This document shows, one piece after another, positions 44,130-61,529 of a stretch of 64,000 nucleotides of DNA. The DNA comes from Minisyncoccota bacterium (GTDB lineage Bacteria; Patescibacteriota; Minisyncoccia; Minisyncoccales; JAGOPM01). The notes below the pieces were generated by a model. It was not told the DNA's origin. It saw only the letters and a program-made list of their open reading frames with translations, and did not search any database. Within the stretch, counting starts at the first letter, position 1. The number at the start of each line of letters is the position of its first letter. Location of the stretch: the NCBI GenBank assembly GCA_041651395.1, contig JBAZJI010000001.1, positions 827,920 to 891,919 on the forward strand, written 5' to 3'. A program made the position numbers and the translations under genes.

Positions 44130-44158
44130 TTGACAAATTTACGAAAAAATATTATAAT
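44130..44158 (+). promoter_or_regulatory. consensus sigma70 promoter
   Basis: TTGACA (44130-35), 17-nt spacer, TATAAT (44153-58), 32 nt upstream of the TTG start. Confidence 0.75.
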
Positions 44159-44190
44159 TTTTTACATTAAAAACTGCAAGGAGGATAAAT

Positions 44191-45036
44191 TTGATAAAAG
44201 AGATAGTCGAAAAAACACTCTTAGCTGCCCATGCCAGCCTGGCAAGATTGGGGCCAACTGGGCTAACACCCAAAGAAAAAAATCGATTCGGCGAAACATG
44301 CCTGCAGGCCGATTGGGAGTGCGAAGAAGCCGTTATCAGTTATTTGAGGCGAGAAAATTTTGCCGCCCGAATCATTAGCGAAGAACACGGCGCCATTGAT
44401 CTTACGCCTAACCCTTTTTATACCTGCATACTCGATGGGCTGGATGGCACGCGCCAATACCAGGCCGATCGCAAAAAAGGAATTTATGGCACTATCTTAG
44501 GCATTTTCCACGGCCTTGACCCCCACTACAATGATTACGCAGCCGGCGGAGCAATAATCCATAGCCAAAATACCCTTATTACATATGTAAAAAACGAGGG
44601 CGTGGACGTTTGCCGCCAAATGCTTACCAAAAACCATTACAATATTCCCCCGCTTATTGTCGATTCCCTCAGTGAATTGGTCAGCCGACAGAGGCCAATT
44701 TTTGTCGATGAGCCATGGGAGGCCAACCAAATTGCTTTTGTCAAACCACTTGAAAAAAGAGGATACACGATTAGTGATCTGGGGAGCTCCACCGCTTCTT
44801 ACACTGCTATTGCCTTAGGCGAGGCTGACCTGGTGCTGGAATGCACGCGCAAAGATAACCTCGAAATCGCGGCATTTTACGGCCTTATTACCGAACTTCA
44901 AGGCCTAATGGTTACCCTAGATGGCCAACCGCTCGGCGAACAAAAATACACAAAATTCGGACAAAAAGACCATATTCCGGTTATCACCTGCACTAATAAA
45001 AGCCTCTTATATGACCTCCTTTGGACGATCACCTAA
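44191..45036 (+). CDS. inositol monophosphatase / FBPase-family phosphatase
   Basis: 281 aa. The TTG start lies 6 nt after AAGGAGG. The metal motifs are ISEEHG and LDGLDGT, with a C-terminal ..GSSTASYTAIALGEADL.. motif. Confidence 0.88.
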   Translation: MIKEIVEKTLLAAHASLARLGPTGLTPKEKNRFGETCLQADWECEEAVISYLRRENFAARIISEEHGAIDLTPNPFYTCILDGLDGTRQYQADRKKGIYGTILGIFHGLDPHYNDYAAGGAIIHSQNTLITYVKNEGVDVCRQMLTKNHYNIPPLIVDSLSELVSRQRPIFVDEPWEANQIAFVKPLEKRGYTISDLGSSTASYTAIALGEADLVLECTRKDNLEIAAFYGLITELQGLMVTLDGQPLGEQKYTKFGQKDHIPVITCTNKSLLYDLLWTIT

Positions 45037-45061
45037 TCCACAATATAGCTGTGGATTTTTT
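45035..45061 (+). terminator. intrinsic terminator
   Basis: aatccaca-atatagc-tgtggatt followed by a T-run. The stop codon lies inside the stem. Confidence 0.75.
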
Positions 45062-45063
45062 AG

Positions 45064-45091
45064 TTGACGGCCTATTTTACGGTGGTAAAAT
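45064..45091 (+). promoter_or_regulatory. sigma70 promoter with extended -10
   Basis: TTGACG (45064-69), 16-nt spacer, TGgTAAAAT (45083-91). Confidence 0.65.
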
Positions 45092-45128
45092 AGTTTAGCT
45101 CTCAAAAAATCTTTATAAGGAGGTAAAG

Positions 45129-45749
45129 ATGGAAAGAATTTTAGATTTTAATACCAAGAAGGTCGTCTGTTCCAAAAATGGACACGATCTGTTTGACATG
45201 GTTTTTACTGCTGAGAATGGCGAAACGTTCGAATATACCGGCATCAACCAAAAACCCTGGTCAGTAATCTTTGCCCTTAAAGAAACGCGTATTTCCCGGA
45301 GGACAGAATTCGACGTTGTTGTGGTGGAAAGCTTTGTTCCTTTTGCCCAGAAAAGAATGATGAGGTTGCCAGCTATTAGTTTTAGCTCTAAAAATCTTGG
45401 CCCGATCAAGGCCGCGGCCAAAGCCTTAAGAAAAAGAACTGGATATGAGTGCGATGAAAAAAACATCATTCCCCTCTCTCCGGTCCTCATGTCCTCTACC
45501 CATTCCGAAACGCAAATCTATTGTTTTTTGGCTGAAAGATGCGTGAAGCGCGAAGAAATTGTCTCGGAGTTCCCCTTTTACCCAACAGTCCACTGGATGT
45601 CATTTAATTTGTGGCTAGACATGATCAAATTGAACAAGATTATTGAATCCTCTTCGATTATGGCCACCCATCTTGCCATGGAAAACAAGCCCGAGCTTTA
45701 CGAATATCGCCTCGAATACCTCGACAACAAAAAAAATATGCGGGATTGA
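45129..45749 (+). CDS. Nudix-fold (ADP-ribose pyrophosphatase-like) protein with degenerate Nudix box
   Basis: 206 aa with AAGGAGG upstream. The NudF-like layout is ..VVVVESFVPFAQKRMMRLPAISFSS..GPIKAAAKALRKRTGYEC.. Here the REx2EE Glu residues are replaced (KALRKRTG). Confidence 0.8.
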   Translation: MERILDFNTKKVVCSKNGHDLFDMVFTAENGETFEYTGINQKPWSVIFALKETRISRRTEFDVVVVESFVPFAQKRMMRLPAISFSSKNLGPIKAAAKALRKRTGYECDEKNIIPLSPVLMSSTHSETQIYCFLAERCVKREEIVSEFPFYPTVHWMSFNLWLDMIKLNKIIESSSIMATHLAMENKPELYEYRLEYLDNKKNMRD

Positions 45750-45765
45750 TTTATTATTCCCGCTC

Positions 45766-45790
45766 AGCTCCACATAAAATGGAGCTTTTT
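45766..45790 (+). terminator. intrinsic terminator
   Basis: agctcc-acataaaat-ggagct followed by TTTT. Confidence 0.65.
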
Positions 45791-45791
45791 A

Positions 45792-45820
45792 TTGCTAAAT
45801 TTTCATGGTTATGCTATGAT
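45792..45820 (+). promoter_or_regulatory. sigma70-like promoter for tRNA-Pro(CGG)
   Basis: TTGCTA, 17-nt spacer, TATGAT (45815-20), 38 nt upstream of the tRNA. Confidence 0.5.
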
Positions 45821-45858
45821 GTTTTACCCGCAAAATCATTTCCCGTTAGTAATTCTAG

Positions 45859-45929
45859 CGGGGCGTCGTACAGTGGTAGTACACACGTTTCGGGTGCGTG
45901 AGGTCCGAGTTCGATTCTCGGCGCCCCGA
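45859..45929 (+). tRNA. tRNA-Pro (anticodon CGG)
   Basis: Acceptor CGGGGCG/CGCCCCG, D-arm GTAC-AGTGGTA-GTAC, anticodon arm CACGT-TTCGGGT-GCGTG, T-arm CCGAG-TTCGATT-CTCGG. No CCA is encoded. Confidence 0.9.
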
Positions 45930-45936
45930 CAAAGAC

Positions 45937-45960
45937 AACAGGCATTATTGCCTGTTTTTG
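45937..45960 (+). terminator. intrinsic terminator
   Basis: aacaggca-ttat-tgcctgtt followed by a T-run. Confidence 0.75.
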
Positions 45961-46044
45961 TTTTCATCTTCGCCAAGGCAACGGCGGATGGCCAAAAAAA
46001 TCAAAAAGCCGAAAAACCATTCATTTTATTAGACATTTCGTTTA

Positions 46045-46073
46045 TTGATTTTTGAGCATTTTTATACTATAAT
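46045..46073 (+). promoter_or_regulatory. sigma70 promoter
   Basis: TTGATT (46045-50), 17-nt spacer, TATAAT (46068-73). Confidence 0.7.
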
Positions 46074-46122
46074 ATATATTGTAGTTATCAGCTACAATTT
46101 CACAATCAAATAAGGAGGATAA

Positions 46123-46371
46123 ATGAATATGTTAAAAATCTTTAGCGGATTGGCCATAGCAGCGCTCGCCAGCATACTGTTTTACAGCATTCGCTGTATG
46201 GTTCTTATCATAGCGCACTGGTCACAATTTCCGGCAGAAGTCACAAGGAGTCTCCCCGGCCTGTTGTTGGGGCTAACAGCCATTAGCATCTGCACCATCT
46301 TGATGATCTACTTGTTTTTATACCTTGGCTTTGATGTTAATCTTATAAAATCTAGACCAAAAAATAACTAG
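46123..46371 (+). CDS. small membrane protein, 2 TM, orphan
   Basis: 82 aa. AAGGAGG is upstream (the second ATG, 46129, is also possible). There are two hydrophobic helices. Confidence 0.75.
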   Translation: MNMLKIFSGLAIAALASILFYSIRCMVLIIAHWSQFPAEVTRSLPGLLLGLTAISICTILMIYLFLYLGFDVNLIKSRPKNN

Positions 46372-46408
46372 CAACAATATTCAAGAAAGGCATCACTAAG
46401 GAGGAAAA

Positions 46409-46840
46409 ATGAACGAACTGCTCAAAAAAGTGATTTCCGGCCCCGCGCTTGTCGCGGCAGTCGGCCAGGCGATTTCCGAATTTAATTTGCAGGTAAGCTC
46501 TACCTTCCCTTCCAACTCCAATACTCGCTATATTGTAAAAGCAGTAATTGAGGCTGATAAGAAGGAATCTGCCCATGTATTTACTATATATAGGCAGACT
46601 AAAGCCAGTAATGGCAAAATAACATCTCAAGCATATGCTTCTTGCATTGTAATGCAGGGCGAGCTAGAGATAAACCCAGAAGATGAAATCCACCAAGTAA
46701 CACTTGCACTTCATACGGGTCCTAAAACGGCCTGCCACTGGGAAAGACTTACGCAATATGTCTGGGAGGAGATTGCGGCCAAATACTCAAACGTCGAAGT
46801 TGTCAAAACCATTGATAAAGGTGCTGATTACGAAGCGTAG
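46409..46840 (+). CDS. hypothetical cytosolic protein, orphan
   Basis: 143 aa. AAGGAGG is 5 nt upstream of the ATG. I recognise no motif. Confidence 0.75.
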   Translation: MNELLKKVISGPALVAAVGQAISEFNLQVSSTFPSNSNTRYIVKAVIEADKKESAHVFTIYRQTKASNGKITSQAYASCIVMQGELEINPEDEIHQVTLALHTGPKTACHWERLTQYVWEEIAAKYSNVEVVKTIDKGADYEA

Positions 46841-46872
46841 CTGTCCCCTATCCTTTGTCCTCTGTTCCTTAT

Positions 46873-46891
46873 GCGCCCACAATGTGGGCGC
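46873..46891 (+). terminator. GC hairpin, probable terminator
   Basis: gcgcccac-aat-gtgggcgc followed by cTTTacgTTT (a weak U-tract). Confidence 0.45.
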
Positions 46892-46892: not shown

Positions 46893-46921
46893 TTTACGTT
46901 TATGCAATATTGGGCTAAAAT
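46893..46921 (+). promoter_or_regulatory. sigma70-like promoter
   Basis: TTTACG, 17-nt spacer, TAAAAT (46916-21). Confidence 0.45.
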
Positions 46922-47072
46922 GCCACATTTAGTATTATTTACAATATATTGTGGCGAAAGACGAAAGCATAGAAAACCTAGTGTTAATTTTGGTCTGAAT
47001 GTAATTGGCAGTAGTTTAGCCTTTATTTTGCATATTTTTTGGCCAAATTTTTCATGGGAAAAAAGGAGGAAA

Positions 47073-47348
47073 ATGTATAATCCAGAAAATCGCGAACGAC
47101 GCAAATATTTGATTGTCCCTCTTGTTATCCTTGCTGTTTCTTTAGCAATAAGCTTGTTTGCCAAATACAGCGCAGAAATTCCAGCTTGGAAAATATTCTA
47201 TGTTTCGAGTGGAAATTTCTGGTATTTGTTTTGGGTAATCGTTGGGACAATCGCTTTTTCGCTAAGCTTTGTTTCGGCCCTAACCATTGTTGGTTATTTG
47301 GTCTACAAATTGTCCTGCTGGCTTTTTCTCAAAAAAGAGAAAATATAA
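47073..47348 (+). CDS. small membrane protein, 2 TM, orphan
   Basis: 91 aa from ATG 47073, with AAGGAGG 4 nt upstream. The track ORF 46704-47348 has an implausible 123-aa leader running through the terminator and promoter. Confidence 0.75.
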   Translation: MYNPENRERRKYLIVPLVILAVSLAISLFAKYSAEIPAWKIFYVSSGNFWYLFWVIVGTIAFSLSFVSALTIVGYLVYKLSCWLFLKKEKI

Positions 47349-47351
47349 CAC

Positions 47352-47374
47352 ACCTCGCAAAGCGAGGTTTTTTG
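47352..47374 (+). terminator. intrinsic terminator
   Basis: acctcgc-aaa-gcgaggt followed by TTTTTT. Confidence 0.8.
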
Positions 47375-47556: not shown

Positions 47557-47584
47557 TTGACATGAAAAATTTTACATGTATAAT
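47557..47584 (+). promoter_or_regulatory. sigma70 promoter
   Basis: TTGACA (47557-62), 16-nt spacer, TATAAT (47579-84). Confidence 0.7.
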
Positions 47585-47643
47585 ATTTAATACAAAATAG
47601 TCCTTAAAAAACCTAGAAAAACAGGACAGAAAGGAATAAGACC

Positions 47644-48279
47644 GTGATCAGAATAGCCTTTGCTGGACCGCCATCTGTTGGTAAAACAATGCTGGCTCGC
47701 GAGCTCTCAGTAATTTTGAAAAAAATCAACTGCTGGGCAGATATGGTTAATGAGGCGCACCGGCCTTATCTTGTCCGCAATGTTTGGCCCCAGAATAGGG
47801 ACATCACTGCCAAAGACGAGTATGAAATGTTTTGCCGACAAATGGAAAACGAGCAAGACTTTGCTCAAGTCCAATCAGACTATGTTTTCCATGAAATGCC
47901 GCTTTTCCAAGATCTTATCTGGTTTCAACACAAAAAACTGGACAAAACTGCTGAAGGAAAACCATATTTCAACTTGATGGAGAAAGAATGCAATAGGGAC
48001 ACGCACAAATACGACCTCATTTTTCTTTGCAATCCAAAGAATGTCCCCAATGTCCGTCAGCGAGTAAGCAATGATGATAGGGAAGTCCTCTATAGGCTTA
48101 TTAAACAATATGTGGCCAATAAAAAGCCATATATTACCAATGTTTATGAGCTGAACGAAGGGGATTTTGATGAAAAGGTGAATAAAGTGTTGGAAAAACT
48201 TGCTTTTCACTATCCGGAAGTCTCAAGCAAGCTCGCAACTTATCGGACAAAGCATGGGAAAATAATGGAAATCATATAA
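47644..48279 (+). CDS. P-loop NTPase/kinase (AAA_28 / NadR-C-terminal-like, tentative)
   Basis: 211 aa with a GTG start and Walker A GPPSVGKT at residues 8-15. The size and N-terminal P-loop are typical of small-molecule kinases. Confidence 0.75.
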   Translation: MIRIAFAGPPSVGKTMLARELSVILKKINCWADMVNEAHRPYLVRNVWPQNRDITAKDEYEMFCRQMENEQDFAQVQSDYVFHEMPLFQDLIWFQHKKLDKTAEGKPYFNLMEKECNRDTHKYDLIFLCNPKNVPNVRQRVSNDDREVLYRLIKQYVANKKPYITNVYELNEGDFDEKVNKVLEKLAFHYPEVSSKLATYRTKHGKIMEII

Positions 48280-48289
48280 GAGGAGGAAA

Positions 48290-49354
48290 ATGGCAAAGCC
48301 ATATGTTAAACCGTTCAGGGTAATCAATGCGATTACCATTGATATTGGAGGGACAAATGTCCGCGTCAGCGCTGCGAGGTGTAACTATAATGCCAAAACC
48401 TGGAAATCATTGGCCAGAACCGTAATTTTCCGATCGCCAGCCAATCAAGAAGAACTGGAAAGGCAAATAGGGGACAGCATGGTTGCAATCAGAGATGAAT
48501 GCAAGGAGAAACTCGAAGTTGTTGCAGTTTGCGCTGCCGGGATATTGGACAGTCACAAATCGACTTTGATTTCATTGTGCAATCAGCCTGGCTGGGAAAG
48601 CATTAACTTCGAAGACATTACCAGAAAGTATTGCCCGGAGATCATGGTCACAGACGGATATTTCCCATATCCCGTTTATGTAGAAAACGATGCCAAATCA
48701 GCCGCTCTTGCACAGTATTATTTTGCCAAATATCCAAACAAGGAAAATCTCCTATACCTGACATGCTCAACAGGCATGGGTGCCGGCATTATTCAAGATG
48801 GCCTGCCATTACTTGGCGGACAGGGCTTGGCAGGGGAAGTAGGACACATGATTATCAGCACAGACCCAACTGCGCCGCTTTGCGGCTGCGGGCAACGGGG
48901 CTGCTGGGAAGCTTTTGTCGGTCTAAATAACTTTGCACGCAATGCCCGAATTTGGTTGGATTTTATTGAGCTTGATGAACCTTGGTATATGACGGCCAAA
49001 AATAGCGAGCAGGGCCTGCGCGCTGAGGATATTTTCCGAGCCGCTATTAAGGACAACGATGCCTCAGCTTATTATCTGGTTAAAAACTGGGTTGAGTACA
49101 TGGCTATTGGTTTAGGAAACTTAATCATGGCCTATAATCCATTGACCATTGTCTTGGGCACGGTTGTCCAATATTGGGGAGAGCCATTACTGCAAATGAT
49201 CCGCCAAGAACTGGAATATCGTTTTTATGGCATGCCAAGACAAATAGAACACTGCCTGCTTACAGCCAATCAGCTACCACGTCTCGAGGTCTTAGCGCCG
49301 CTAGCCGCTGCGCTCCGACACCATTCCTTGATCTATGGTTGGGAGATAAAATAA
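48290..49354 (+). CDS. ROK-family sugar kinase (no HTH domain)
   Basis: 354 aa with GAGGAGG upstream. It has DIGGTNVRV (the ATP-binding motif) and CGCGQRGCWEAF (the ROK Zn motif). It lies 10 nt after the P-loop gene. Confidence 0.9.
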   Translation: MAKPYVKPFRVINAITIDIGGTNVRVSAARCNYNAKTWKSLARTVIFRSPANQEELERQIGDSMVAIRDECKEKLEVVAVCAAGILDSHKSTLISLCNQPGWESINFEDITRKYCPEIMVTDGYFPYPVYVENDAKSAALAQYYFAKYPNKENLLYLTCSTGMGAGIIQDGLPLLGGQGLAGEVGHMIISTDPTAPLCGCGQRGCWEAFVGLNNFARNARIWLDFIELDEPWYMTAKNSEQGLRAEDIFRAAIKDNDASAYYLVKNWVEYMAIGLGNLIMAYNPLTIVLGTVVQYWGEPLLQMIRQELEYRFYGMPRQIEHCLLTANQLPRLEVLAPLAAALRHHSLIYGWEIK

Positions 49355-49367
49355 ACAGAATTAATAC

Positions 49368-49389
49368 CCGCGCCTTGCGCGGTTTTTTT
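49368..49389 (+). terminator. intrinsic terminator
   Basis: ccgcgc-ctt-gcgcgg followed by TTTTTTT. Confidence 0.8.
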
Positions 49390-49413: not shown

Positions 49414-49442
49414 TTGACAAAATATAGCTTTTATTTTACCAT
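49414..49442 (+). promoter_or_regulatory. sigma70-like promoter
   Basis: TTGACA (49414-19), 17-nt spacer, TACCAT (a weak -10). Confidence 0.4.
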
Positions 49443-49497
49443 ATATTTGCTTAGCAAAAAGGAGCTAAGCAAATTCATTTGCCAAAAAGGAGGCAAA

Positions 49498-50364
49498 ATG
49501 AGCAATATTAACAATCAAGGCGACACAAGGAGACATGCTTTTTACAGAAATCTCCGCAACTTTGGGGCTTGTGCTGGCATCTCTGCCATCATCTGCACCC
49601 TTATTTTGTCTGGCTTTGTTTTCAGCCAAAATGGGGAAATCTCCAAACTAGACACAATTATTTCCGCCATAGTTCAGGGCCAAGGCGATAGCAAGGATGA
49701 AATCGACACTGCCAAAAGGCTGATATTTGAAAAGGACAACGGAATTTTCATCCAATCAATCAGCCGGCTGGATGGCAGCGCTTGGAACACGGAAATCGTC
49801 GATGCGCTCATCAAAAAGCTTGACCCATCCAGGGTCAAGGTATTGCGCAATTACCGCAAGGTAAGCGTCATGCCTTTTGCCCACCTAATTTCCTACTACA
49901 CTAGTGAAAAGGACTTTGTAGCTGAAGTTATGCCAGTGCCACAAATAATGATCGTTATCCCGGCCAGCTACACAGTCAACGCAGAATTAGTAAACAACTA
50001 TAATTCTTTGGATCTATACCAGCCAGAAACAATCAAACGATTTGAAAATCTTTGGAAGGATTTAGGAATAAAAGTTGTTAGCATTAGCCAGATTGCTGAT
50101 GATGGCTACCAACATGGTGCACTAAGCGGTATCGAATCCTGCATTGTCGGCAGGGAAGAATGGGAAAATGCGCCACCACAAATAAGGATAGCAGAGGACC
50201 CAATTATCCGCGGATACTATAAAGGCCATTTACCAGAACTTAAAGAACAAAATCTTACCAAATTCTTGGATATCAACAGCGGAACAATAATGGTTGCCTA
50301 CAAAAAGCAGTCCTCCGACGAGATATTCCTGATGTTTTTTCAGCGCCCTTGGGGTCTAGGCTAA
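49498..50364 (+). CDS. N-terminally membrane-anchored protein, orphan
   Basis: 288 aa from ATG 49498, with AAGGAGG 5 nt upstream; the track ORF starts at 49408. The TM helix is ACAGISAIICTLILSGFVF. Confidence 0.75.
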   Translation: MSNINNQGDTRRHAFYRNLRNFGACAGISAIICTLILSGFVFSQNGEISKLDTIISAIVQGQGDSKDEIDTAKRLIFEKDNGIFIQSISRLDGSAWNTEIVDALIKKLDPSRVKVLRNYRKVSVMPFAHLISYYTSEKDFVAEVMPVPQIMIVIPASYTVNAELVNNYNSLDLYQPETIKRFENLWKDLGIKVVSISQIADDGYQHGALSGIESCIVGREEWENAPPQIRIAEDPIIRGYYKGHLPELKEQNLTKFLDINSGTIMVAYKKQSSDEIFLMFFQRPWGLG

Positions 50365-50378
50365 AATAAGGAGAAAAA

Positions 50379-50558
50379 ATGGTAAAAATTGAAATATTAT
50401 CAAAAAAAGACATGTCTGATCTGCATGAAGCCATCAAAAAGTGGCTCGAAAACAATAAAAGAGCCAAGATCATCTCACTGAGCCATTCTGAAGGAAATGA
50501 TGAGTTCAGGCAGCACAGGGCAACAGCGCTCATTCTTTATAAAGGGGATGCTTCATAA
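50379..50558 (+). CDS. 59-aa protein, Cse60-like (tentative); not in the ORF track
   Basis: AAGGAG is 6 nt upstream. The product is MVKIEILSKKDMSDLHEAIKKWLENNKRAKIISLSHSEGNDEFRQHRATALILYKGDAS. The pattern resembles small Cse60-family proteins, from memory. Confidence 0.6.
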   Translation: MVKIEILSKKDMSDLHEAIKKWLENNKRAKIISLSHSEGNDEFRQHRATALILYKGDAS

Positions 50559-50624
50559 AAAGGGAGACTTGGCCGGCAGTTAATTAAGACTAATAACCCA
50601 TCATAGCCCGCAATAGTGAGCTTT

Positions 50625-50650
50625 GCCGCGTAATAACACGCGGCTTTTTT
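50625..50650 (+). terminator. intrinsic terminator
   Basis: gccgcg-taataaca-cgcggc followed by TTTTTT. Confidence 0.8.
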
Positions 50651-50654
50651 ATAC

Positions 50655-50678
50655 AAAAATATCCGCTTTTGGCGGATA
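50655..50678 (-). terminator. intrinsic terminator of cca (minus strand)
   Basis: Read on the minus strand: tatccgcc-aaaa-gcggata followed by TTTTT. It is convergent with the previous terminator. Confidence 0.7.
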
Positions 50679-55054: not shown

Positions 55055-55313
55055 CGATAAACCCAAGCAAAAACTCCGGCAAGAACGTAAAAACGTTTTA
55101 ACCGGAGCTGTCATTTTCACTATCTTATTTCTGCTGGCGACCTGGTATCTGGTGAGCGTTACCTTGCCCGAAGAGCTGATTGTCAGTATCATCGGCACTG
55201 TTATTTGTTTAGTCATGGTGGTAGCCATTATCCTTACCGCTATCCGGCAGTTAGCAAAGCTCAAGGCAGAAGAAAAAGAACTCCAACAAAGCCAAATAGC
55301 GGCTCAAAATTAA
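55038..55313 (+). CDS. small membrane protein, 2 TM, orphan
   Basis: 91 aa from ATG 55038 with AAGGAGAGGGG upstream. It overlaps the 3' end of the previous gene by 17 nt. The track ORF starts at 54957. Confidence 0.72.
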   Translation: MSKTNDDKPKQKLRQERKNVLTGAVIFTILFLLATWYLVSVTLPEELIVSIIGTVICLVMVVAIILTAIRQLAKLKAEEKELQQSQIAAQN

Positions 55314-55322
55314 AAAATTACA

Positions 55323-55345
55323 AATGGGTTTAAGGCCCATTTTTG
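55323..55345 (+). terminator. intrinsic terminator
   Basis: aatggg-tttaagg-cccatt followed by a T-run. Confidence 0.7.
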
Positions 55346-55351: not shown

Positions 55352-55379
55352 TTGATTTTTTTGAAAATAATGATATAAT
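55352..55379 (+). promoter_or_regulatory. sigma70 promoter with extended -10
   Basis: TTGATT (55352-57), 16-nt spacer ending in TGa, TATAAT (55374-79). Confidence 0.72.
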
Positions 55380-55417
55380 ATAATCATCAAATTAAAAACT
55401 ACATAAGGAGGTAGAGC

Positions 55418-56272
55418 TTGAACAATAAAACTCAAAAAGTATTGATTTTTGGCGCCTCGTCGGGCTTTGGCTTGGCTACAGCCAAATTCCTTGATAAGCG
55501 AGATTATCAAGTCATCGGTACCAGCCGCAAAAATTTTTTCTGTTCTAACCCATTCGGGTTTGAAATGCTAAGTTGCGATATCAGCATCCCGCATACCGTG
55601 GCTTGGGCTATCAAGGAAGCGCATAACAAACTCGGAGGGCTTGATGCCATCATCAACTGCGCCGGGCACGGGCTATCAGGAACCAGCGAAACGGCCACGC
55701 GGGAACAAGCGCAAGGGCAATTTGATGCTAACTACTTTGGCGCCGTTAATGTGCTTAATTGCGCCCTGCAACTGGTTGCAGGCCAAAAAGAGCCGCCGCT
55801 CAAGCTGATCCAGATTAGTTCGATTGCCGCTGCAGTGGGCGTCCCTTTCCAGCCTTATTACTCTGCCAGTAAAGCAGCCATTGAAATGCATTTTGAATCG
55901 GTAGATCGCGAACTTCTGGGCCAAGCTCTGCAGCTTGTACTTATAGAGCCGGGGGATTTTGCAACCAATTTCACAATCAACAGGAAAAAAACAGCATGCT
56001 TAAAAACAACCTCTCGAGATGAAAAATCAATCTACAATTCCTTGCGCAACCTCGCCTGTGAAAGGGCCATAGGGGAAATGGAGCGCTCAGAACAAAACGG
56101 CAGCAACCCGCAGGACCTCGCCCGGCTTATCGCCCGCATTTTGCAAATGCGCCAACCAAAACTCCGCTACCATATCGGCAAACCCCTGGAAATTCTCGCC
56201 CTCTACCTCAAACCCTTGTTGCCCCAAAACACTTTTCGCAGCCTTATCCGCGACAATTACAAAATTAAATAG
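55418..56272 (+). CDS. short-chain dehydrogenase/reductase (SDR)
   Basis: 284 aa with a TTG start 6 nt after AAGGAGG. It has GASSGFG, NCAG and S..YSASK catalytic motifs. Confidence 0.9.
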   Translation: MNNKTQKVLIFGASSGFGLATAKFLDKRDYQVIGTSRKNFFCSNPFGFEMLSCDISIPHTVAWAIKEAHNKLGGLDAIINCAGHGLSGTSETATREQAQGQFDANYFGAVNVLNCALQLVAGQKEPPLKLIQISSIAAAVGVPFQPYYSASKAAIEMHFESVDRELLGQALQLVLIEPGDFATNFTINRKKTACLKTTSRDEKSIYNSLRNLACERAIGEMERSEQNGSNPQDLARLIARILQMRQPKLRYHIGKPLEILALYLKPLLPQNTFRSLIRDNYKIK

Positions 56273-56292
56273 CTTCCTTTGGAGGCTTTTTT
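56271..56292 (+). terminator. intrinsic terminator
   Basis: agcttcc-ttt-ggaggct followed by TTTTT. Confidence 0.65.
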
Positions 56293-56333
56293 CTTTATGG
56301 AAATTGTTTACTTAATTTGCTACCCTTACTTAT

Positions 56334-56405
56334 GCCCCTGTAGCTTAATGGATAGAGCACTGGTCTTCGGAACCGGTGATGCGGGTTCGATTCCTGCCAG
56401 GGGCA
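56334..56405 (+). tRNA. tRNA-Arg (anticodon TCG)
   Basis: Acceptor GCCCCTG/CAGGGGC, D-arm GCTT-AATGGATA-GAGC, anticodon arm CTGGT-CTTCGGA-ACCGG, T-arm GCGGG-TTCGATT-CCTGC. No CCA is encoded. Confidence 0.92.
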
Positions 56406-56419
56406 CTAATAAAAATAAT

Positions 56420-56680
56420 ATGACTACATTAACGGTAGTTAATATAAAATGCGGGGGATGCGAAAAAAGCATCACCTCGGCCGTAGAAAAACTTGGCGGC
56501 AAAAATATTGCAGTTGATGTCGCCAAACAGCAGATATCTTTTGAAGGAGGGGATATTGGCAAAATAAAAAAAGAGTTGGCTAAAATGGGCTACCCGGAGG
56601 CCAATAGCCCTGAAGCCAAAAGTCTTCTCAAAAAAGCCACCTCTTATGCCTCCTGCATGGTGGGAAGGTTGAAAAAATGA
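56420..56680 (+). CDS. heavy-metal-associated (HMA) domain protein, CopZ-like
   Basis: 86 aa from ATG 56420: MTTLTVVNIKCGGCEKSITSAVEKLGG.., with a CxxC metal site in a ferredoxin-like HMA layout. The track ORF (from 56279) runs through the tRNA. There is no SD, and the start is 14 nt after the tRNA. Confidence 0.85.
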   Translation: MTTLTVVNIKCGGCEKSITSAVEKLGGKNIAVDVAKQQISFEGGDIGKIKKELAKMGYPEANSPEAKSLLKKATSYASCMVGRLKK

Positions 56681-56689
56681 ACAAATAAA

Positions 56690-56716
56690 ACAGGCCTTAA
56701 GTAGGGCCTGTTTTAT
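56690..56716 (+). terminator. intrinsic terminator
   Basis: acaggcc-ttaagtag-ggcctgt followed by TTT. Confidence 0.75.
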
Positions 56717-56752
56717 TTGCTTTGGAATAAATTATTGTTATCATACTTTACA

Positions 56753-56809
56753 CTCCCGTAGTTGAATGGATACAACGAGGCCTGGCAAGCTGCAAGTGCA
56801 GGTTCGATT
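56753..56809 (+). pseudogene. 5' three-quarters copy of tRNA-Arg(CCG), ending at the T-loop, with an altered anticodon arm
   Basis: 56753-76 equals 56920-43 (24/24). 56789-809 equals 56957-77 (21/21). The 12-13 nt between them differ by 4 substitutions plus a 1-nt deletion (loop CTGGCAA versus CTCCGAA). No matching 3' acceptor strand is present. Confidence 0.8.
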
Positions 56810-56895
56810 ATTAGAAATACAAAATAAGCACAGCGAATTTTAATATTTCTCGTATGCCGGGTAATCCCGGCGCCTGCTGGAAACAGGAAGAGAAC
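56810..56895 (+). repeat. T-loop insert element, copy C (63-nt two-hairpin insert plus CCTGC plus aggaagagaac motif)
   Basis: It starts directly after TTCGATT. Hairpin 1 is agaaata(56813-19)/tatttct(56844-50). tatGCCGGG-taat-CCCGGC lies at 56853-71. CCTGC (56873-77) is complementary to the T-stem GCAGG. It is homologous to copies A and B at 61.75 kb. Confidence 0.75.
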
Positions 56896-56918
56896 ATGAC
56901 AACCAAATAGGTAAATAT

Positions 56919-56990
56919 GCTCCCGTAGTTGAATGGATACAACAGTGGCCTCCGAAGCTGCAAGTGCAGGTTCGATTCCTGCCGGGAGCA
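56919..56990 (+). tRNA. tRNA-Arg (anticodon CCG)
   Basis: Acceptor GCTCCCG/CGGGAGC, D-arm GTTG-AATGGATA-CAAC, anticodon arm GTGGC-CTCCGAA-GCTGC, T-arm GCAGG-TTCGATT-CCTGC. No CCA is encoded. Confidence 0.92.
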
Positions 56991-56996
56991 CAAACG

Positions 56997-57015
56997 ACCG
57001 GCAATTGCCGGTTTT
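56997..57015 (+). terminator. intrinsic terminator
   Basis: accggca-at-tgccggt followed by TTT. Confidence 0.7.
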
Positions 57016-57022: not shown

Positions 57023-57051
57023 TTGACGCTTCACTCTTTTTATACAATAAT
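57023..57051 (+). promoter_or_regulatory. sigma70-like promoter
   Basis: TTGACG (57023-28), 17-nt spacer, AATAAT (57046-51). Confidence 0.4.
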
Positions 57052-57082
57052 GCCTCACTTAACAATTATATAAAGGAGGTTT

Positions 57083-57220
57083 ATGGCGGAGGATAAAACA
57101 GAAAGAACCTGTTACGTGAACAATGATTGCCAGAAATGCGAACAAAACAAATTTTGTTCTTGGGCCTTCCGGGAAGACTTAAACATAAAGAAACTTAGAC
57201 CTAAAAGGGATGATTCTTAG
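57083..57220 (+). CDS. 45-aa four-cysteine mini-protein; not in the ORF track
   Basis: AAGGAGG is 4 nt upstream. The product is MAEDKTERTCYVNNDCQKCEQNKFCSWAFREDLNIKKLRPKRDDS (C-x5-C-x2-C-x5-C). The stop lies 12 nt before the next gene. Confidence 0.6.
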   Translation: MAEDKTERTCYVNNDCQKCEQNKFCSWAFREDLNIKKLRPKRDDS

Positions 57221-57232
57221 AAAGGAGGAAAA

Positions 57233-57625
57233 ATGCCCTATATCACAAAAAGCGCCAGGGATAAGCTCGACCCTCATATCGAAGCTATTGCCCAAGCCAT
57301 CAGCGAGCAAACAAAAGAAACAAAAGACGAACTATCTCTGGCGGGCATGGTTAACTATGTCTGCACGCGCATCGCTCTTTTAAGCTTCCGAAAAGTACTG
57401 GGCAAATTCCGCTACAAATGGATAGCCCTATTCACGGGAATTCTTGAAAACATCAAACAAGAATTCCACGATAGGGTAGTTAAACCATACGAAGCGGAAG
57501 CCAACTGGAAGCATGGAGATCTGCCCGAGTTTATCCAAGCAGCAAAAGATCTAAACGAGGAAATAGAATTTTCCAGAAATTCCAAAGCCAAAACACGCCC
57601 CAGGCCCCCCAAAAATAGCCCCTAA
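57233..57625 (+). CDS. conserved hypothetical protein (family I recall from phage and bacterial genomes; PYE..GD motif)
   Basis: 130 aa. AAGGAGG is 5 nt upstream. It begins MPYITKSARDKLDP...GMVNYVCTRI...GILENIKQEFHDRVVKPYEAEANWKHGDL. The family memory is unverified. Confidence 0.8.
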   Translation: MPYITKSARDKLDPHIEAIAQAISEQTKETKDELSLAGMVNYVCTRIALLSFRKVLGKFRYKWIALFTGILENIKQEFHDRVVKPYEAEANWKHGDLPEFIQAAKDLNEEIEFSRNSKAKTRPRPPKNSP

Positions 57626-57637
57626 AAGGGCTTTTTT
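57617..57637 (+). terminator. intrinsic terminator
   Basis: agccc-ctaaaa-gggct followed by TTTTT. The stop codon lies in the loop. Confidence 0.65.
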
Positions 57638-57653: not shown

Positions 57654-57681
57654 TTGATTTATATTAGAATTTCAGTATAAT
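57654..57681 (+). promoter_or_regulatory. sigma70 promoter
   Basis: TTGATT (57654-59), 16-nt spacer, TATAAT (57676-81). Confidence 0.7.
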
Positions 57682-57747
57682 ATAACCAGATGTTTTATAG
57701 CAAAATACACTGATCGGCACACATAAAAATTACTCAAGGAGGTAAGT

Positions 57748-60700
57748 ATGAATAAGAACAAGATCGCCGCGGCTATCACTGGGATTCTTTGTTTGGCTCA
57801 AATGCTGCAATTTGCTCCGGTGCGAGCGCTTACAGTTTGCCCTAGCGGCAACTGCAGCATTTTGATCGAAGAAGTGTTGTTAAAAGTGGATGGGCAAGTC
57901 ATTTCTGATAATGACAAGTCCGCGATGATGACTAATGTTCCTTTTGAACGGGTTTTTCTCCCCGGGACGCAGATGGAGATATCCGTGAAAGCTTCCGGTC
58001 CGATTAATGATGTCGCTTATTGGTCCCTCTATTGGGGCACTAATGACACGCCATCGTTGATAAACAGCGACCGGACAATCTGCGCAAAATGCCCAGGAGA
58101 AAAATATGTTCCCGAAGGCGCACCGGTTTTTAATGTTAAATGGGCTGTCCCTAAGGATGCCAAAAAGTATTCCAAAATTTGGATTCAGTCCTTTGACCAA
58201 ACCGGGAAAACCATGGGCGGAGCTAATACTCGCCCGCTGGTGCACAGCCAAACAATCATCAAACCGAACTGCTATGTTTCAGAAATAAAAGATGTAACAG
58301 AGAGTAGCGCTACGGCCATTATTCACTTTGCAAGGCCGGGGAGTGTTTGGCCCTTAAACTCTTGGCTGGAGCTAAGAAGTGATTCGGGACAATATTTTCC
58401 CAACCACAGCCAACCGCTGGGAATGAAAACATTCCAAAATGCCCAAGGGCTTACTGAAAACCAAAATAAGCTTGCCGTTGTTTTGAAAGATCTTCTCCCT
58501 AATTCCAAATATTGGGTAAAAGCCATTGCGGCTAGTGAGGGAGGATATTGTGAGAGCAGGGAAGTAGAGCTAATAACTCTTTGCGCCTTGCCGCAGCTTA
58601 AAACTTTACGCTGCTCCAAAATCGATTGGAACCAAAACAGTTGGAATCAAACCGACAATTCAGCCTACTTAACTTGCGAGATAACATCCTTTGGCGGAGA
58701 TAACTATATGGAAGTTATGGTACAGGGGTTCAATATCAATGCACCCCGGGAACGCTTTGGCACAACTTGGCAGCGTCTTGAATGCAGCCAATTTGACCAA
58801 CTGCCAAGTGAATTTACATTGCAAGCCGGCAAAGGATTTACAGCGGAGGAAGTTTATGACTTCGAATTCTTAGCGCGCAACAGCCGTGGAGAGATTGCTA
58901 GTGGAGGACATAAATACTTTCCGCCACCCTTTCCCGGATACAAACCAGAAATTGTTACGGGCGGGGTTAAAAAAGTAACTCCAGACTCAGTCGAGTTGGT
59001 CATTAAAGTTGTCTCCATTTCTCATCCAACAAAAATTTGGCTGGAAATCACTGACCAAAAATTTGGAGATACTTGGGATAGAGGGAAGTATACTCCCGAC
59101 CCCAATGGCAAATCCATACTCAGCGATTCGCTGGAAGTGGACTTGCCCGGAGAATACACCATTACTGTCAAAAATCTGGAACACAATAGAGGCATGGAAA
59201 AACCACCCTCCTGGGTCAGAAAAGAATACCCTCATCTCAAATACACACCAGGCTATTTATTCAAAGCCCATGCCCTAGACTTAACCACTAACGAAACGGA
59301 CAAGGGCACTGACTGGTCAAGATTGGAAACTTATCGCACTCTCCAAAAACCCAAGGTCACCACCAAGCAACCCATAAACATCACTTACAAAAGTGCGGAT
59401 TTGGGGGCAATGGTTGATTTCTCAGGTTTTAGCAGTAAATGCGTAATCTTCTTCAAGTATTGGCAAAAAGGCAAAATAGCCCAAACCATTCAAGAAACAT
59501 TCCCCCGAATCCAAGTCGAAACTCGCTATGATTACGTAGATTTTGAGCTCATGGAAGCCACACGCTTTACGGTTGAAAATCTCGAGCCATACACTGTTTA
59601 CTGTTTCCAAGCCTATGTAATCAATGGCCTAACAAACAGCACGGGAGAGCAAATTGAAACGCCAGCGGCCAATATTCAAGAATTCCGGACCTTGTGGGGA
59701 GATAAAAATTCTATTTACGATACTCCCTTAATCCAGACAACCGGAGTTTCCCAAACTGGGCCAAACACCTTTTGCCTGCAAGGAAAGCTCTTAGACTTTG
59801 GCGGGTCAGATTGGGTCGAAGTCACGATTGAATTTTGGGGTTTAAGCACACACTTTGAAGGAGAACAATCCTTTATTTATGTAGGCCTATACCGCAAAGA
59901 AAATTGGCAAGACAGATACCCGACATTCGATGTTTATCGCAGTAATCTGGTCTTTGGCAAATCGTTCGTCTTCCGCTTCACCGCGCGCTCTAGCGCGGGT
60001 ACCACCAAGGGATTTTTAATCGATTCCTCCGGCCAAAAAGTTGAGGGGGGATTCTGGAAATTCCAAACCGACCCTCTGCCTGGAGATCAGGTTAAACCAG
60101 AAATATTTCTGAAAGGCATTAAAATTCTAATGCCCGACCAAACTGAAGAAAACCCCACGCCCCAAGCCATCATCACTATCAATGTCCAGAATATGGGCAC
60201 ACCACCACTTCCTTGGTTGGATCTCCAATACCTTTGGACTCGATATAGTGGTTCGGTAATCGCAGCTTGGCCTAATACTTGGCAATACAAATCAGAAAAG
60301 ATCCGAATAACTAAAGCTGGCGAATATTCCTTCCTAATAAATAAAGGTTTGGAATTTGGCCGAAGTTTCTTTATAAGCGTGAATGCGGAAAATGGAAGTA
60401 TGTTAACCTGGATGGTGCCAGAAAGTAAATTTTTCCCGCACTATTTCACCACTGACCACCTTCCGCCGCTTATCAAAGCCACTAACCCCACCTTCATCAA
60501 TAAACAAAACACCCTGGCTAATACTCAAGTAATACACCCGGGGACCAACGAATGGGGAACTTTCTTTAGTTGGTTTGAAGTCGTAACTTTCCGCGGATCT
60601 GTCGATGCAATAAATAAAGAAATTACGGTCTTGCCCGACACTCTAAACCCTAACAACCAATTGCTCACCCGCACACTCTTTATGACCCCCAAAATATCCA

Positions 60701-60912
60701 GAAAAGGCACTAAGCCGTATTCCTTCAGTATCAATGCCGATCCAGGACTCTTAAATCTACCCGACGAACAATCCGGAAGTAAAATAATTTCCACTTACTA
60801 TGCTTACCGCGCATGGGCTCAAAACCAAGGCGGGCAATACCATACAAGCTGGATAGTGGTTACTGATGATACATTCCAAAGGATGGATAAGATGCCTTGG
60901 GAAAAACCCTAA
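57748..60912 (+). CDS. large secreted multi-Ig/FN3-like repeat protein
   Basis: 1054 aa. AAGGAGG is 6 nt upstream. The signal peptide is ..LQFAPVRA/LT. Beta-sandwich-type modules recur (..LTCEITSFGGDNYMEVMVQGF.., ..CLQGKLLDFGGSDWVEVTIEFWG.., ..GAMVDFSGFSSKCVIFFKYW..). There is no C-terminal anchor. Confidence 0.88.
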   Translation: MNKNKIAAAITGILCLAQMLQFAPVRALTVCPSGNCSILIEEVLLKVDGQVISDNDKSAMMTNVPFERVFLPGTQMEISVKASGPINDVAYWSLYWGTNDTPSLINSDRTICAKCPGEKYVPEGAPVFNVKWAVPKDAKKYSKIWIQSFDQTGKTMGGANTRPLVHSQTIIKPNCYVSEIKDVTESSATAIIHFARPGSVWPLNSWLELRSDSGQYFPNHSQPLGMKTFQNAQGLTENQNKLAVVLKDLLPNSKYWVKAIAASEGGYCESREVELITLCALPQLKTLRCSKIDWNQNSWNQTDNSAYLTCEITSFGGDNYMEVMVQGFNINAPRERFGTTWQRLECSQFDQLPSEFTLQAGKGFTAEEVYDFEFLARNSRGEIASGGHKYFPPPFPGYKPEIVTGGVKKVTPDSVELVIKVVSISHPTKIWLEITDQKFGDTWDRGKYTPDPNGKSILSDSLEVDLPGEYTITVKNLEHNRGMEKPPSWVRKEYPHLKYTPGYLFKAHALDLTTNETDKGTDWSRLETYRTLQKPKVTTKQPINITYKSADLGAMVDFSGFSSKCVIFFKYWQKGKIAQTIQETFPRIQVETRYDYVDFELMEATRFTVENLEPYTVYCFQAYVINGLTNSTGEQIETPAANIQEFRTLWGDKNSIYDTPLIQTTGVSQTGPNTFCLQGKLLDFGGSDWVEVTIEFWGLSTHFEGEQSFIYVGLYRKENWQDRYPTFDVYRSNLVFGKSFVFRFTARSSAGTTKGFLIDSSGQKVEGGFWKFQTDPLPGDQVKPEIFLKGIKILMPDQTEENPTPQAIITINVQNMGTPPLPWLDLQYLWTRYSGSVIAAWPNTWQYKSEKIRITKAGEYSFLINKGLEFGRSFFISVNAENGSMLTWMVPESKFFPHYFTTDHLPPLIKATNPTFINKQNTLANTQVIHPGTNEWGTFFSWFEVVTFRGSVDAINKEITVLPDTLNPNNQLLTRTLFMTPKISRKGTKPYSFSINADPGLLNLPDEQSGSKIISTYYAYRAWAQNQGGQYHTSWIVVTDDTFQRMDKMPWEKP

Positions 60913-60923
60913 ACCAAATAAAT

Positions 60924-60949
60924 GCGAAGACTTATGTCTTCGCTTTTTT
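60924..60949 (+). terminator. intrinsic terminator
   Basis: gcgaagac-ttat-gtcttcgc followed by TTTTTT. Confidence 0.85.
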
Positions 60950-60951
60950 AT

Positions 60952-60979
60952 TTGCAGGGCAGGGGACGCATGGTATAAT
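60952..60979 (+). promoter_or_regulatory. sigma70 promoter with extended -10 driving a probable leaderless mRNA
   Basis: TTGCAG (60952-57), 16-nt spacer ending in TGg, TATAAT (60974-79). The ATG at 60987 is only 7 nt downstream. Confidence 0.65.
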
Positions 60980-60986
60980 ATTTTTA

Positions 60987-61529
60987 ATGAAAAATAAATC
61001 TGCCTATTTTTTTACCGCGCTTTTAGCCACCTTCTTTTTATTTTCTATAGCCTATGGAGCTACGAGCACCCCCAAAGATTTGGATTTTGATTTGCCCAAA
61101 CCTTCCGCCCAGACACCGATAGCCTGCGAGGCTTGGAAAGGCGGCCTGCTGGAGGGTGTTTGCAAAGATCCCAGCAAATTAGAATTTTGCCACCTTTTTG
61201 TTTTGCTGGACAATATTATCAACTGGATAATGTTTGTGGCTATGCCCATAGCAGCCTTTCTCCTTTTGGTTTGGGGAGGGTTTAATTATATTATTTATCT
61301 GGAAAACCCCGCCAATGCCAAAAAATTCTGGGATACGGCCAAAGCTCTTTTGTGGGGCGCTATCGTAGTTTATGCCGCCTATGCCGTGGTTAATCTCTTC
61401 CTGATTATTGTCGGCGCCAAAATTTTCTCACCGGAAGCCGGATTGGGACAATGGTTCAAATTCCCTTGCGGAACCGGCGCGCCGCCGGCTAGCACTTCCA
61501 CCCCGCCAACCGGAGTTAGTGAATTCTAA
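60987..61529 (+). CDS. T4SS-pilin-like (TrbC/VirB2-type) membrane protein, tentative
   Basis: 180 aa from ATG 60987. It has a signal peptide ..FSIAYGA and two TM helices flanking GGFNYIIYLENPANAKKFWDTAK, a pattern I recall from CPR type IV secretion system pilin proteins. The C-terminus is Pro/Thr-rich. Confidence 0.7.
   Translation: MKNKSAYFFTALLATFFLFSIAYGATSTPKDLDFDLPKPSAQTPIACEAWKGGLLEGVCKDPSKLEFCHLFVLLDNIINWIMFVAMPIAAFLLLVWGGFNYIIYLENPANAKKFWDTAKALLWGAIVVYAAYAVVNLFLIIVGAKIFSPEAGLGQWFKFPCGTGAPPASTSTPPTGVSEF

Follow-up and report, generated by a model that had tools for sequence, protein, structure and literature searches.

In the present study, we analyzed a stretch of 64,000 nucleotides from a Minisyncoccota bacterium (assembly GCA_041651395.1, contig JBAZJI010000001.1, positions 827,920 to 891,919; hereafter the window), and found that a block of accessory genes at 44.13-61.6 kb carries Shine-Dalgarno (SD) motifs that the surrounding genes almost completely lack. 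A strong SD precedes 17 of the 20 plus-strand protein genes of the block but only 1 of 53 neighbouring genes in the window and its flanks (Fisher test, p=1.1e-12). The motifs and their positions are conserved in related genomes, and the open reading frames (ORFs) behind them turn over. With moderate confidence, we favor the explanation that the block is a clade-specific, vertically maintained, fast-turnover array of self-contained cassettes with selected SD-dependent initiation. The first-pass annotation of this DNA had already described an SD/no-SD dichotomy, and the contrast proved to be stronger than it had claimed.

The sequence covered comprises the 64-kb window and 20 kb of flanking sequence, about 84 kb of a 951,739-bp contig (ENA ERZ27247363 k141_1056181). 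Gene starts were re-derived from the sequence, and the 17-20 nt located 5' of each start were scored against the canonical anti-SD, with dG <= -8 kcal/mol taken as a strong SD. Among the 17 SD-led genes of the block, the motif is AAGGAGG in 12, AGGAGG in 2 and AAGGAG in 3, and it is separated from the start by 3-8 nt in 16 genes and by 11 nt in one. The plus-strand block genes without a strong SD are those for an AAA_28 protein (47644), an HMA-domain protein (56420) and a pilin-like protein (60987). The core genes of the window have a mean score of -2.0, equal to that of random positions (-2.2), 3.1% of which attain -8, and all 17 genes in the 20 kb of flanks from the same contig lack an SD. 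A control in which every in-frame start was allowed to compete against an internal decoy position gave no SD excess on core genes; mis-called starts are therefore not the cause of the contrast. Among the core genes, a strong SD was found solely at 10653-11618 on the minus strand, where GAGGAGGT is followed by 6 nt and then GTG. This gene, downstream of pilB and overlapping its end, encodes a functionally uncharacterised 321-aa protein. A candidate SD on the gene at 43333 (ATG at 43938) was rejected because that ATG is ATA in a sister strain (L003).

The core genes, which mostly overlap or abut (most intergenic gaps range from -26 to +59 nt), have leaders with 50-70% A and 2-10% G at positions -14 to -1. 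Internal SD-like motifs are not depleted in the core coding sequences, where a slight excess was found instead, and their depletion was dropped as an uninformative proxy for an active anti-SD. The gene for the CCA-adding enzyme, which lies on the minus strand within the block, has a TATAAT 7 nt before its ATG and no SD, as it does in L003 and in a more distant relative, L068; in many relatives the CCA gene is predicted to be leaderless or starts a few bases past a tRNA gene. The promoter -10 element of the pilin-like gene at 60987 also lies 7 nt before the ATG, again without an SD. On the basis of this spacing, leaderless mRNAs are predicted for both genes. We also observed protein genes that start 5-15 nt past the 3' end of a tRNA gene, namely the HMA gene of the window (56406-56420) and the CCA genes of L078, L087, L092, L094, L100, L101 and L119; processing of the tRNA could yield near-leaderless mRNAs in these cases.

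The first-pass annotation had proposed near-consensus promoters and terminators for each small transcription unit, and this was borne out. The block consists of about 13 short units, which typically have their own σ70-consensus promoter and terminator. Promoter-like sites number 44 in the block against 31.3±5.6 expected, and terminator-like sites 49 against 23.9±5.8. Three promoters match the consensus at 12/12 positions (TTGACA-N16/17-TATAAT) and four read TTGATT-N16/17-TATAAT, and each of the fifteen plus-strand promoter sites scoring >=10/12 is intergenic. In two 20-kb stretches of the core, promoter-like sites remain at the shuffle level (35 against 36.2 and 43 against 39.4, none with 12/12), as do terminator-like sites at 24-44 kb (27 against 27.3 expected). 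The promoter type itself is common to block and core units (rpsO, CCA and the gene at 43333), so that, of the distinct transcription-signal regime that had been suggested, the signal density holds and a separate kind of promoter does not.

Comparison with related strains supports the view that these signals are functional. The sister strains (L003/L152, L153 and L154) belong to the same species-level cluster, with 98-99% nucleotide identity in the hydrogenase and TPR genes, and contain the whole block at 84-94% nucleotide identity. Between them, the SD bases are 95.7% identical (3 of 70 changed against 10.7 expected, p=0.004) and the promoter hexamers 96.9% identical (3 of 96 changed, p=1e-4), against 84.7% for other intergenic sequence and 81.8% for third codon positions. 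Conservation of SD and promoter bases above the neutral rate, as seen in these alignments, supports a dedicated regime that would be functional. L068 is much more divergent, with 69% identity in the ROK kinase, 78% in the CCA enzyme and 24-60% in other orthologues, and the block proteins in general diverge fast. Nevertheless, L068 retains the gene order (small transmembrane genes, AAA_28, ROK, CCA on the opposite strand, and a short-chain dehydrogenase, SDR) and the same terminator-promoter-SD architecture at each gene, and 19 of its 21 genes have AAGGAGG-type SDs, more than 10 of these genes being without a counterpart in the window. At such divergence unselected motifs would decay; thus, the SDs appear to be functional in the clade, and the idea that they are non-functional relics of a recent import was rejected. 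The AAA_28 gene has the weak leader AAAGGAAT in the window, and the full AAAGGAGG in L068.

The upstream signals are conserved and duplicated independently of the ORFs that follow them. The 78 nt upstream of the gene at 46123 (46045-46122) are 94% identical to positions 1-78 of L068, an extreme conservation of promoter and 5' untranslated region, but the two 82-aa ORFs that follow have no detectable similarity to each other (57% identity of the coding sequences against 56% for random ones). The gene at 49498, located after the ROK gene, has been swapped or has diverged in the sister strains, whereas its promoter, leader, SD and initial codons are conserved. The promoters of the third and eighth units share 79% identity over 63 nt (repeat family D2). 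In L068, a promoter with a leader of about 110 nt and two SD-like motifs is duplicated (7300-7480 and 7990-8172) in front of unrelated ORFs, one for an 80-aa lipoprotein-like product and the other for a 183-aa WG-repeat protein. In several leaders, the SD lies in the loop of a short stem. The leader of the gene at 49498 (49449-49497) forms two hairpins (z=-6.6), of which the first has the SD-like AAAAAGGAG in its loop and the second presents the real SD; this arrangement, conserved in L003, L153 and L068, could be a regulatory or mRNA-stabilising element. From this independence, the promoter-leader-SD unit would appear to be a resident platform, with the ORFs behind it turning over.

In the explanation that we favor, the array would be embedded in a Patescibacteria genome among housekeeping genes for tRNAs and for the CCA enzyme. 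Each cassette would open with a σ70-type promoter and a short leader, in many cases with a hairpin at its start, and continue through a canonical SD and the ORF to an intrinsic terminator. Conserved genes would be translated by SD-independent routes, by way of A-rich and G-poor leaders, overlap or near-abutment of stop and start codons, leaderless mRNAs or tRNA-processed leaders. Initiation on the cassette genes would depend on SD:anti-SD pairing, which probably drives it. The promoter-leader-SD unit would be a resident, conserved and duplicable platform, behind which the ORF may diverge, be swapped or be newly inserted. Ribosomes would be recruited strongly by the SD whatever the ORF sequence, which would suit fast-turnover genes. 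As a tentative extension, SD-poor members of the candidate phyla radiation (CPR) might keep the anti-SD for a separate tier of translation, with the flexible genome on this platform and the core SD-independent; the two tiers might be regulated separately through anti-SD accessibility, and the array would then be a translational regulon.

Whether the anti-SD is available bears directly on this model. The 16S rRNA gene of a related CPR contig (L128) ends with GGATCACCTCCTTTCT, which is the canonical anti-SD. In this gene (L128:1-1000), a CPR-type insertion of about 500 nt lies between approximately position 1400 and the 3' terminal helix, and the Rfam alignment stops before the insertion. No rRNA gene was found in the window, its ±10 kb flanks or the first 67 loci. 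Under the favored explanation, the 16S rRNA of the present genome would keep an accessible canonical anti-SD as well. Several points weigh against the explanation given above. Tsurumaki et al. (2022) found the anti-SD motif in only 48% of the 16S genes of Parcubacteria (PMC9297842), so that it cannot be taken for granted in this genome. If the anti-SD engaged strongly, a depletion of internal SD-like motifs might be expected in core coding sequences, and these show none. The promoters, the leaderless starts and high expression are predictions from sequence, and the benefit of plug-and-play, ORF-independent initiation is something that we infer. A single acquisition en bloc would leave the same regional clustering. 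Furthermore, the 84 kb covered belong to a 952-kb genome, and SD-led genes may be common elsewhere in it.

Related lineages show how restricted this clustering is. The proteins near the boundary of the block have relatives in Parcubacteria, Komeilibacteria, Falkowbacteria and other Patescibacteria metagenome-assembled genomes. In about 1 Mb around NuoF homologues of related Patescibacteria, 7 of 417 conserved genes have an SD, against 17 of 417 in the internal control, and small singleton genes (60-200 aa) have one in 20 of 225 cases against 1 of 225. These SD calls in relatives were made with a simple ORF caller and a measured false-positive control. Around CCA homologues with 49-62% identity (80 loci), the count is 52 of 1007 against 26 in the control, and none of the 80 loci contains an SD-rich cluster. 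Among these relatives, 26% of the SD-led genes have a strong promoter of their own, against 8% of the other genes, and 32% against 10% have a terminator of their own, roughly a threefold difference in each case. Overall, SDs are essentially absent from about 1.9 Mb of related CPR lineages; the exceptions are scattered small singleton genes, which have a promoter and a terminator to themselves. A search of the literature gave no description of SD-led gene clusters in CPR.

One possible explanation of the clustering is a legacy of horizontal transfer, in which the block, or single genes in it, came from SD-using donors and the imported SDs were kept for lack of another means of initiation. The SD-led genes are indeed clustered in one region and confined to a narrow clade: the block is present, with varying content, in all five sister-strain assemblies and in L068, whereas it is missing from the relatives at 33-62% identity that were identified through NuoF or CCA, among them the CCA relatives at 49-62%, which have no SD-rich flanks, and the NuoF-anchored relatives, which have none of the island genes. 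Relatives of the ROK kinase are found at 92, 72 and 69% identity and then at no more than 35%, and these next matches are from non-CPR bacteria (Lentisphaerae, Eisenbacteria, Armatimonadota and Firmicutes); an initial metagenome scan for ROK by itself gave no match. The block also contains tRNA genes, a degenerate tRNA copy and repeats resembling the tRNA T arm, and the genes specific to L068 are SD-led as well.

However, the composition of the block does not clearly mark it as foreign. Its GC content is 0.453 against 0.442 in the core. Its codon usage is at a large distance from that of the adjacent core, but the plus-strand genes past 62 kb and the plus-oriented genes of the other flank have the same enrichment of C and A at third positions; therefore, the difference is mostly a strand (replication) asymmetry. 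Compared with same-strand core genes, it is marginal (p=0.03), and codon usage was dropped as evidence of foreign origin. The plus strand is C-rich at third positions across 84 kb regardless of gene orientation (window with the L065 and L067 flanks), the skew of G and C at third positions being about +0.09 to +0.18 in minus-strand genes and -0.13 to -0.32 in plus-strand genes. The skew points to a single direction of replication throughout the 84 kb; both the cassette block and rpsO-pnp are on the C-rich strand. Because the asymmetry does not flip at the 44-kb strand switch, the idea of a replication origin at that point was rejected. Furthermore, scans of the block products against Pfam and PHROG gave no integrase, transposase, relaxase or phage family, and two IMG/VR scans gave no relatives of the block. 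The block is also inherited across the clade: its gene order is kept over about 30% protein divergence, and host tRNA and CCA genes are interspersed in it. The conservation and duplication of modules apart from their ORFs also points to resident rather than imported signals. Because the conservation of the SDs shows current function, transfer would explain at most their origin and not their maintenance. Taken together, for the horizontal origin from an SD-using donor that the first-pass annotation suggested, a recent import is not supported, and a transfer legacy in the broader sense is possible but doubtful; for some genes, an older foreign origin, as hinted by ROK, is possible.

An integrated mobile element, such as a degraded prophage, an integrative and conjugative element or an integron-like cassette array, would account for the tRNA-adjacent scars, an inversion in a sister strain, the gene resembling a type IV secretion system (T4SS) pilin and the cassette-like organisation. 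The only PHROG match among the block products is that of AAA_28 to generic NMN-adenylyltransferase/kinase families. Neither IntI, attI nor an attC-like repeat was found in the block, and its units have their own promoters. A candidate integron-like junction motif after the terminators, TTATTAGA or TTTTATTAG, occurs at chance frequency and was rejected. The block holds four tRNA genes, a degenerate tRNA-Arg copy and T-arm-like repeats, and no pair of repeats brackets it. We regard such an element as very unlikely.

The content of the array does vary between strains. A 273-aa gene in the sister strains is absent from the window, and in L152 (19500-19800) the tRNA-Arg(CCG) gene and its degenerate copy, about 170 nt apart, are inverted with the 273-aa gene alongside. 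A repeat of about 100 nt, beginning with the T-arm-like GGTTCGATT and (T)TATTAGA and ending in the hairpin TATGCCGnGTAATCnCGGC, occurs in three copies adjoining tRNA genes (56790-56900, 61735-61850 and 61834-61950). A related insert lies in L003 opposite position ~49390 of the window, and others at further intergenic sites in the sister strains. As the copies stand at differing intergenic sites, the repeat may be a small mobile or recombination-scar element.

The abrupt change at the strand switch could also raise the suspicion of an artefact, either a chimeric assembly of an SD-using organism with a CPR contig or mis-called starts and chance motifs; moreover, the right junction was seen only in this assembly and its NCBI twin. 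However, the left junction, which the first-pass annotation placed at 44.03-44.19 kb, is real: it is crossed by the independent assemblies L002, L003/L152, L153 and L154 from Logan, NCBI and JGI, and at least four such assemblies exclude a chimera at this point. The SD-free, predicted leaderless CCA gene, which is typical of the lineage, lies midway in the block. Chance and start errors are ruled out by the probability of the contrast and by the multi-start control. An artefact is thus extremely unlikely.

Another alternative could be a high-expression regulon, in which consensus signals maximise the output of abundant proteins for the cell surface and host interaction. Near-consensus signals are found throughout the block, 9 of its 20 products are predicted to be membrane or secreted proteins, including the 1054-aa secreted protein and the pilin-like protein, and C-ending two-fold codons are in slight excess compared with same-strand core genes. 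The other 11 of 20, among them the ROK kinase, the inositol monophosphatase (IMPase)-like protein, SDR, AAA_28 and the DUF6899 protein, are predicted to be cytoplasmic. The pilin-like gene is predicted to be leaderless rather than SD-led, and in the core a gene for a 2160-aa LVIVD-repeat surface protein and the pilB cluster have no SD. High expression itself is a prediction, and we consider this explanation unlikely. The first-pass annotation had offered a dedicated high-expression regime for surface genes. A dedicated functional regime is supported by the selection on SD and promoter bases and by L068, but a surface-only role does not fit the SD-free surface protein of the core. Likewise, its view that the products are mostly orphans stands, as the protein encoded at 45129 has 19 relatives among 1.84 billion cluster representatives and the DUF6899 and pilin-like proteins have 2-3 each in 5.8 billion (word-index searches), but an assignment to surface or host interaction fits about half of them.

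The gene census of the block had to be revised. Many short SD-led units had been recognized correctly, but four tRNA genes and the minus-strand CCA gene had been missed, two ORFs were spurious because they overlap tRNA genes (45792-46055, and the 5' part of 56279-56680), and five starts were moved relative to the earlier ORF list (to 47073, 49498, 55038, 56420 and 60987). An E-value scan against Rfam found nothing in the block beyond the four tRNAs. As a practical warning, gene callers train one ribosome-binding-site model per genome, and the longest-ORF rule mis-set several starts in this block.

At the left boundary (44029-44190), a divergent promoter region separates the SD-free minus-strand gene at 43333 from the first SD-led gene, with TTGACA-17-TATAAT on the plus strand (44130-44158) and TTAGCA-18-TATAAT on the minus strand (44083-44054). 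The units described below are on the plus strand unless noted. The first (44178-45057) has the SD AAGGAGG at 44178-44184, the IMPase-like gene at 44191-45036 with a TTG start, and a terminator at 45035-45057. In the second (45064-45786), a promoter at 45064-45091 and an SD at 45117-45123 precede an orphan 206-aa gene (45129-45749; terminator 45766-45786). It is followed by a tRNA-Pro(CGG) unit (45792-45956) with its own promoter (45792-45820), the tRNA at 45859-45930, 100% identical in L003, and a terminator at 45937-45956. The third unit (46045-46891) begins with TTGATT-17-TATAAT (46045-46073) and a 5' hairpin, and contains an 82-aa gene with two transmembrane segments (2-TM; 46123-46371, SD 46112-46118) and a 143-aa gene (46409-46840, SD 46398-46404) before a terminator at 46873-46891. 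The fourth (46893-47368) has a weak promoter at 46893-46921 and an SD at 47063-47069 for a 91-aa 2-TM gene at 47073-47348, the start of which had been placed at 46704; its terminator is at 47352-47368.

A perfect promoter (47557-47584) opens the fifth unit (47557-49382), in which AAA_28 (47644-48279, GTG start, weak SD AAGGA at 47631-47635) is followed by the ROK kinase gene (48290-49354) with AGGAGG at 48281-48286 and a terminator at 49368-49382. The sixth (49414-50678; promoter 49414-49442) has the double-hairpin leader, the membrane-anchored 288-aa gene at 49498-50364, which is the variable allele, with its SD at 49487-49493, and a 59-aa gene at 50379-50558 with an SD at 50368-50373; two terminators follow (50625-50644 and 50660-50678). 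The CCA gene occupies 50703-52161 on the minus strand (coding sequence 50703-52148, no SD, -10 TATAAT at 52161-52156). Beyond it, the seventh unit (52186-53178) has a perfect promoter at 52186-52214, a secreted 218-aa gene (52283-52939, SD 52269-52274), a basic 63-aa gene (52952-53143, SD 52942-52948) and a hairpin terminator at 53150-53178. The eighth (53321-54620) consists of TTGATT-17-TATAAT at 53321-53349, an SD at 53375-53380, a 384-aa 2-TM gene at 53386-54540 and a terminator at 54598-54620. For the ninth (54670-55342), no consensus promoter was found; it contains a 123-aa gene (54683-55054, SD 54670-54676) and a 91-aa transmembrane gene (55038-55313, AAGGAG at 55021-55026), with a terminator at 55322-55342.

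The tenth unit (55352-56287) carries the SDR gene at 55418-56272 (TTG start) behind a promoter at 55352-55379 and an SD at 55405-55411, and ends at a terminator at 56271-56287. Two tRNA-Arg segments come next. In the first (56334-56721), the SD-free HMA-domain gene (56420-56680) starts 13 nt after tRNA-Arg(TCG) at 56334-56406 and is followed by a hairpin at 56680-56721; the second (56750-57013) contains the degenerate tRNA-Arg copy (~56750-56815), one copy of the ~100-nt repeat, tRNA-Arg(CCG) at 56919-56991 and a terminator at 56996-57013, and repeat families D5 and D10 fall in this segment. In the eleventh unit (57023-57632; promoter 57023-57051, terminator 57617-57632), a 45-aa Cys-rich ORF (57083-57220, SD 57073-57079) precedes the DUF6899 gene (57233-57625, SD 57222-57228), and both are also called in the sister strains. 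The twelfth (57654-60943) is devoted to the 1054-aa secreted protein (57748-60912), which has sub-threshold fn3 matches; its promoter is TTGATT-16-TATAAT at 57654-57681, its SD lies at 57736-57742 and its terminator at 60924-60943. The thirteenth (60951-61573) has a promoter with a TG-extended TATAAT at 60951-60979, the T4SS-pilin-like membrane protein gene at 60987-61529 and a terminator at 61552-61573; the homologues of 176-178 aa are consistent with the 180-aa start at 60987. The right boundary (61591-61950) is formed by a promoter at 61591-61619, tRNA-Lys(CTT) at 61633-61704 and two tandem ~100-nt repeats at 61735-61950 (repeat family D7), and the SD-free rpsO lies just past it at 62060.

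Outside the block, minus-strand genes in long, tightly packed operons occupy 1-44 kb, with pilus genes, HU, RNase Y, ClpP, trigger factor, a fatty-acid/phospholipid synthesis cluster, fatty-acid kinase, FeFe hydrogenase and a NuoF-like gene; from 62 kb on, rpsO, an NYN-domain gene, pnp and more plus-strand housekeeping genes are found. The fatty-acid, phospholipid and fatty-acid kinase genes at 23026-37483 on the minus strand encode a carboxyltransferase, BCCP, biotin carboxylase, biotin ligase, FabG, two NMO/FabK-like proteins (one fused to FabA/Z), PlsY, PlsC, a thiolase-like protein, FakA-DegV and DegV, and none of them has an SD. Such a cluster is unusual for Patescibacteria. The gene for the 2160-aa LVIVD-repeat surface protein contains two identical 40-nt copies of GTTGGCATTAAGGAGGGCAAGATTGGAATTGTCACGAAGG (plus strand) at 4893-4932 and 5331-5370, 438 nt apart, which indicates an internal repeat.

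For lineages that keep the anti-SD although they are largely without SDs, autoregulation of the bS21 and bS18 genes is the reason proposed in Bacteroidetes. There, in an SD-poor genome with a retained anti-SD, strong SDs on the bS21/bS18 genes serve autoregulation (Jha et al. 2021, PMC7797042). The present case is similar in that most genes are SD-free with A-rich leaders, a few SDs are very strong and conserved, and the canonical anti-SD is retained in the related contig. It differs in that about 17 accessory, fast-evolving genes in one array, and not ribosomal-protein genes, are SD-led. The bacteroidetal anti-SD is sequestered by bS21/bS18/bS6, and rpsU, rpsR and rpsF lie outside the sequence covered here; as the SD-led genes in the block are accessory, the bS21/bS18 regulatory logic does not explain them. 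The SDs here belong to a different class, that of plastic accessory cassettes; in the same phylum, one major group is reported to have lost the anti-SD in half of its members. The study of anti-SD loss in Parcubacteria (PMC9297842) concerns the same superphylum and fits the SD-free core of this genome and of the ~1.9 Mb of relatives, but it addresses the rRNA side only and reports no gene sets that keep SDs. The selected SDs described above argue that this clade keeps a working anti-SD. If the pattern is genome-wide, it would provide a sequence-readable marker separating flexible from core CPR genes, and a testable model in which new genes can be translated because the SD is a generic signal, independent of the ORF. 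The modules would also be candidate portable expression signals for future Patescibacteria genetics.

The block resembles a tRNA-adjacent genomic island in its clade-restricted content, strain-specific insertions and deletions, inversion, allele swap, tRNA genes and fragments, and many orphans. Unlike an island, it has neither mobility genes nor a clear compositional anomaly and is syntenic over deep divergence, and its defining trait, a class of translation signals, lies outside the island concept. Like integron cassette arrays, it is a linear series of short, swappable ORFs of mostly unknown function, many with their own SD, but it lacks IntI, attI and attC, and each unit has its own promoter and terminator. 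Archaea and some bacteria have a leaderless-first, SD-internal operon organisation, and the genome studied here likewise appears to combine leaderless and SD-dependent initiation. However, the SD here tracks the region and the class of gene and not the position in the operon: operon-internal core genes are SD-free, whereas promoter-proximal cassette genes are SD-led.

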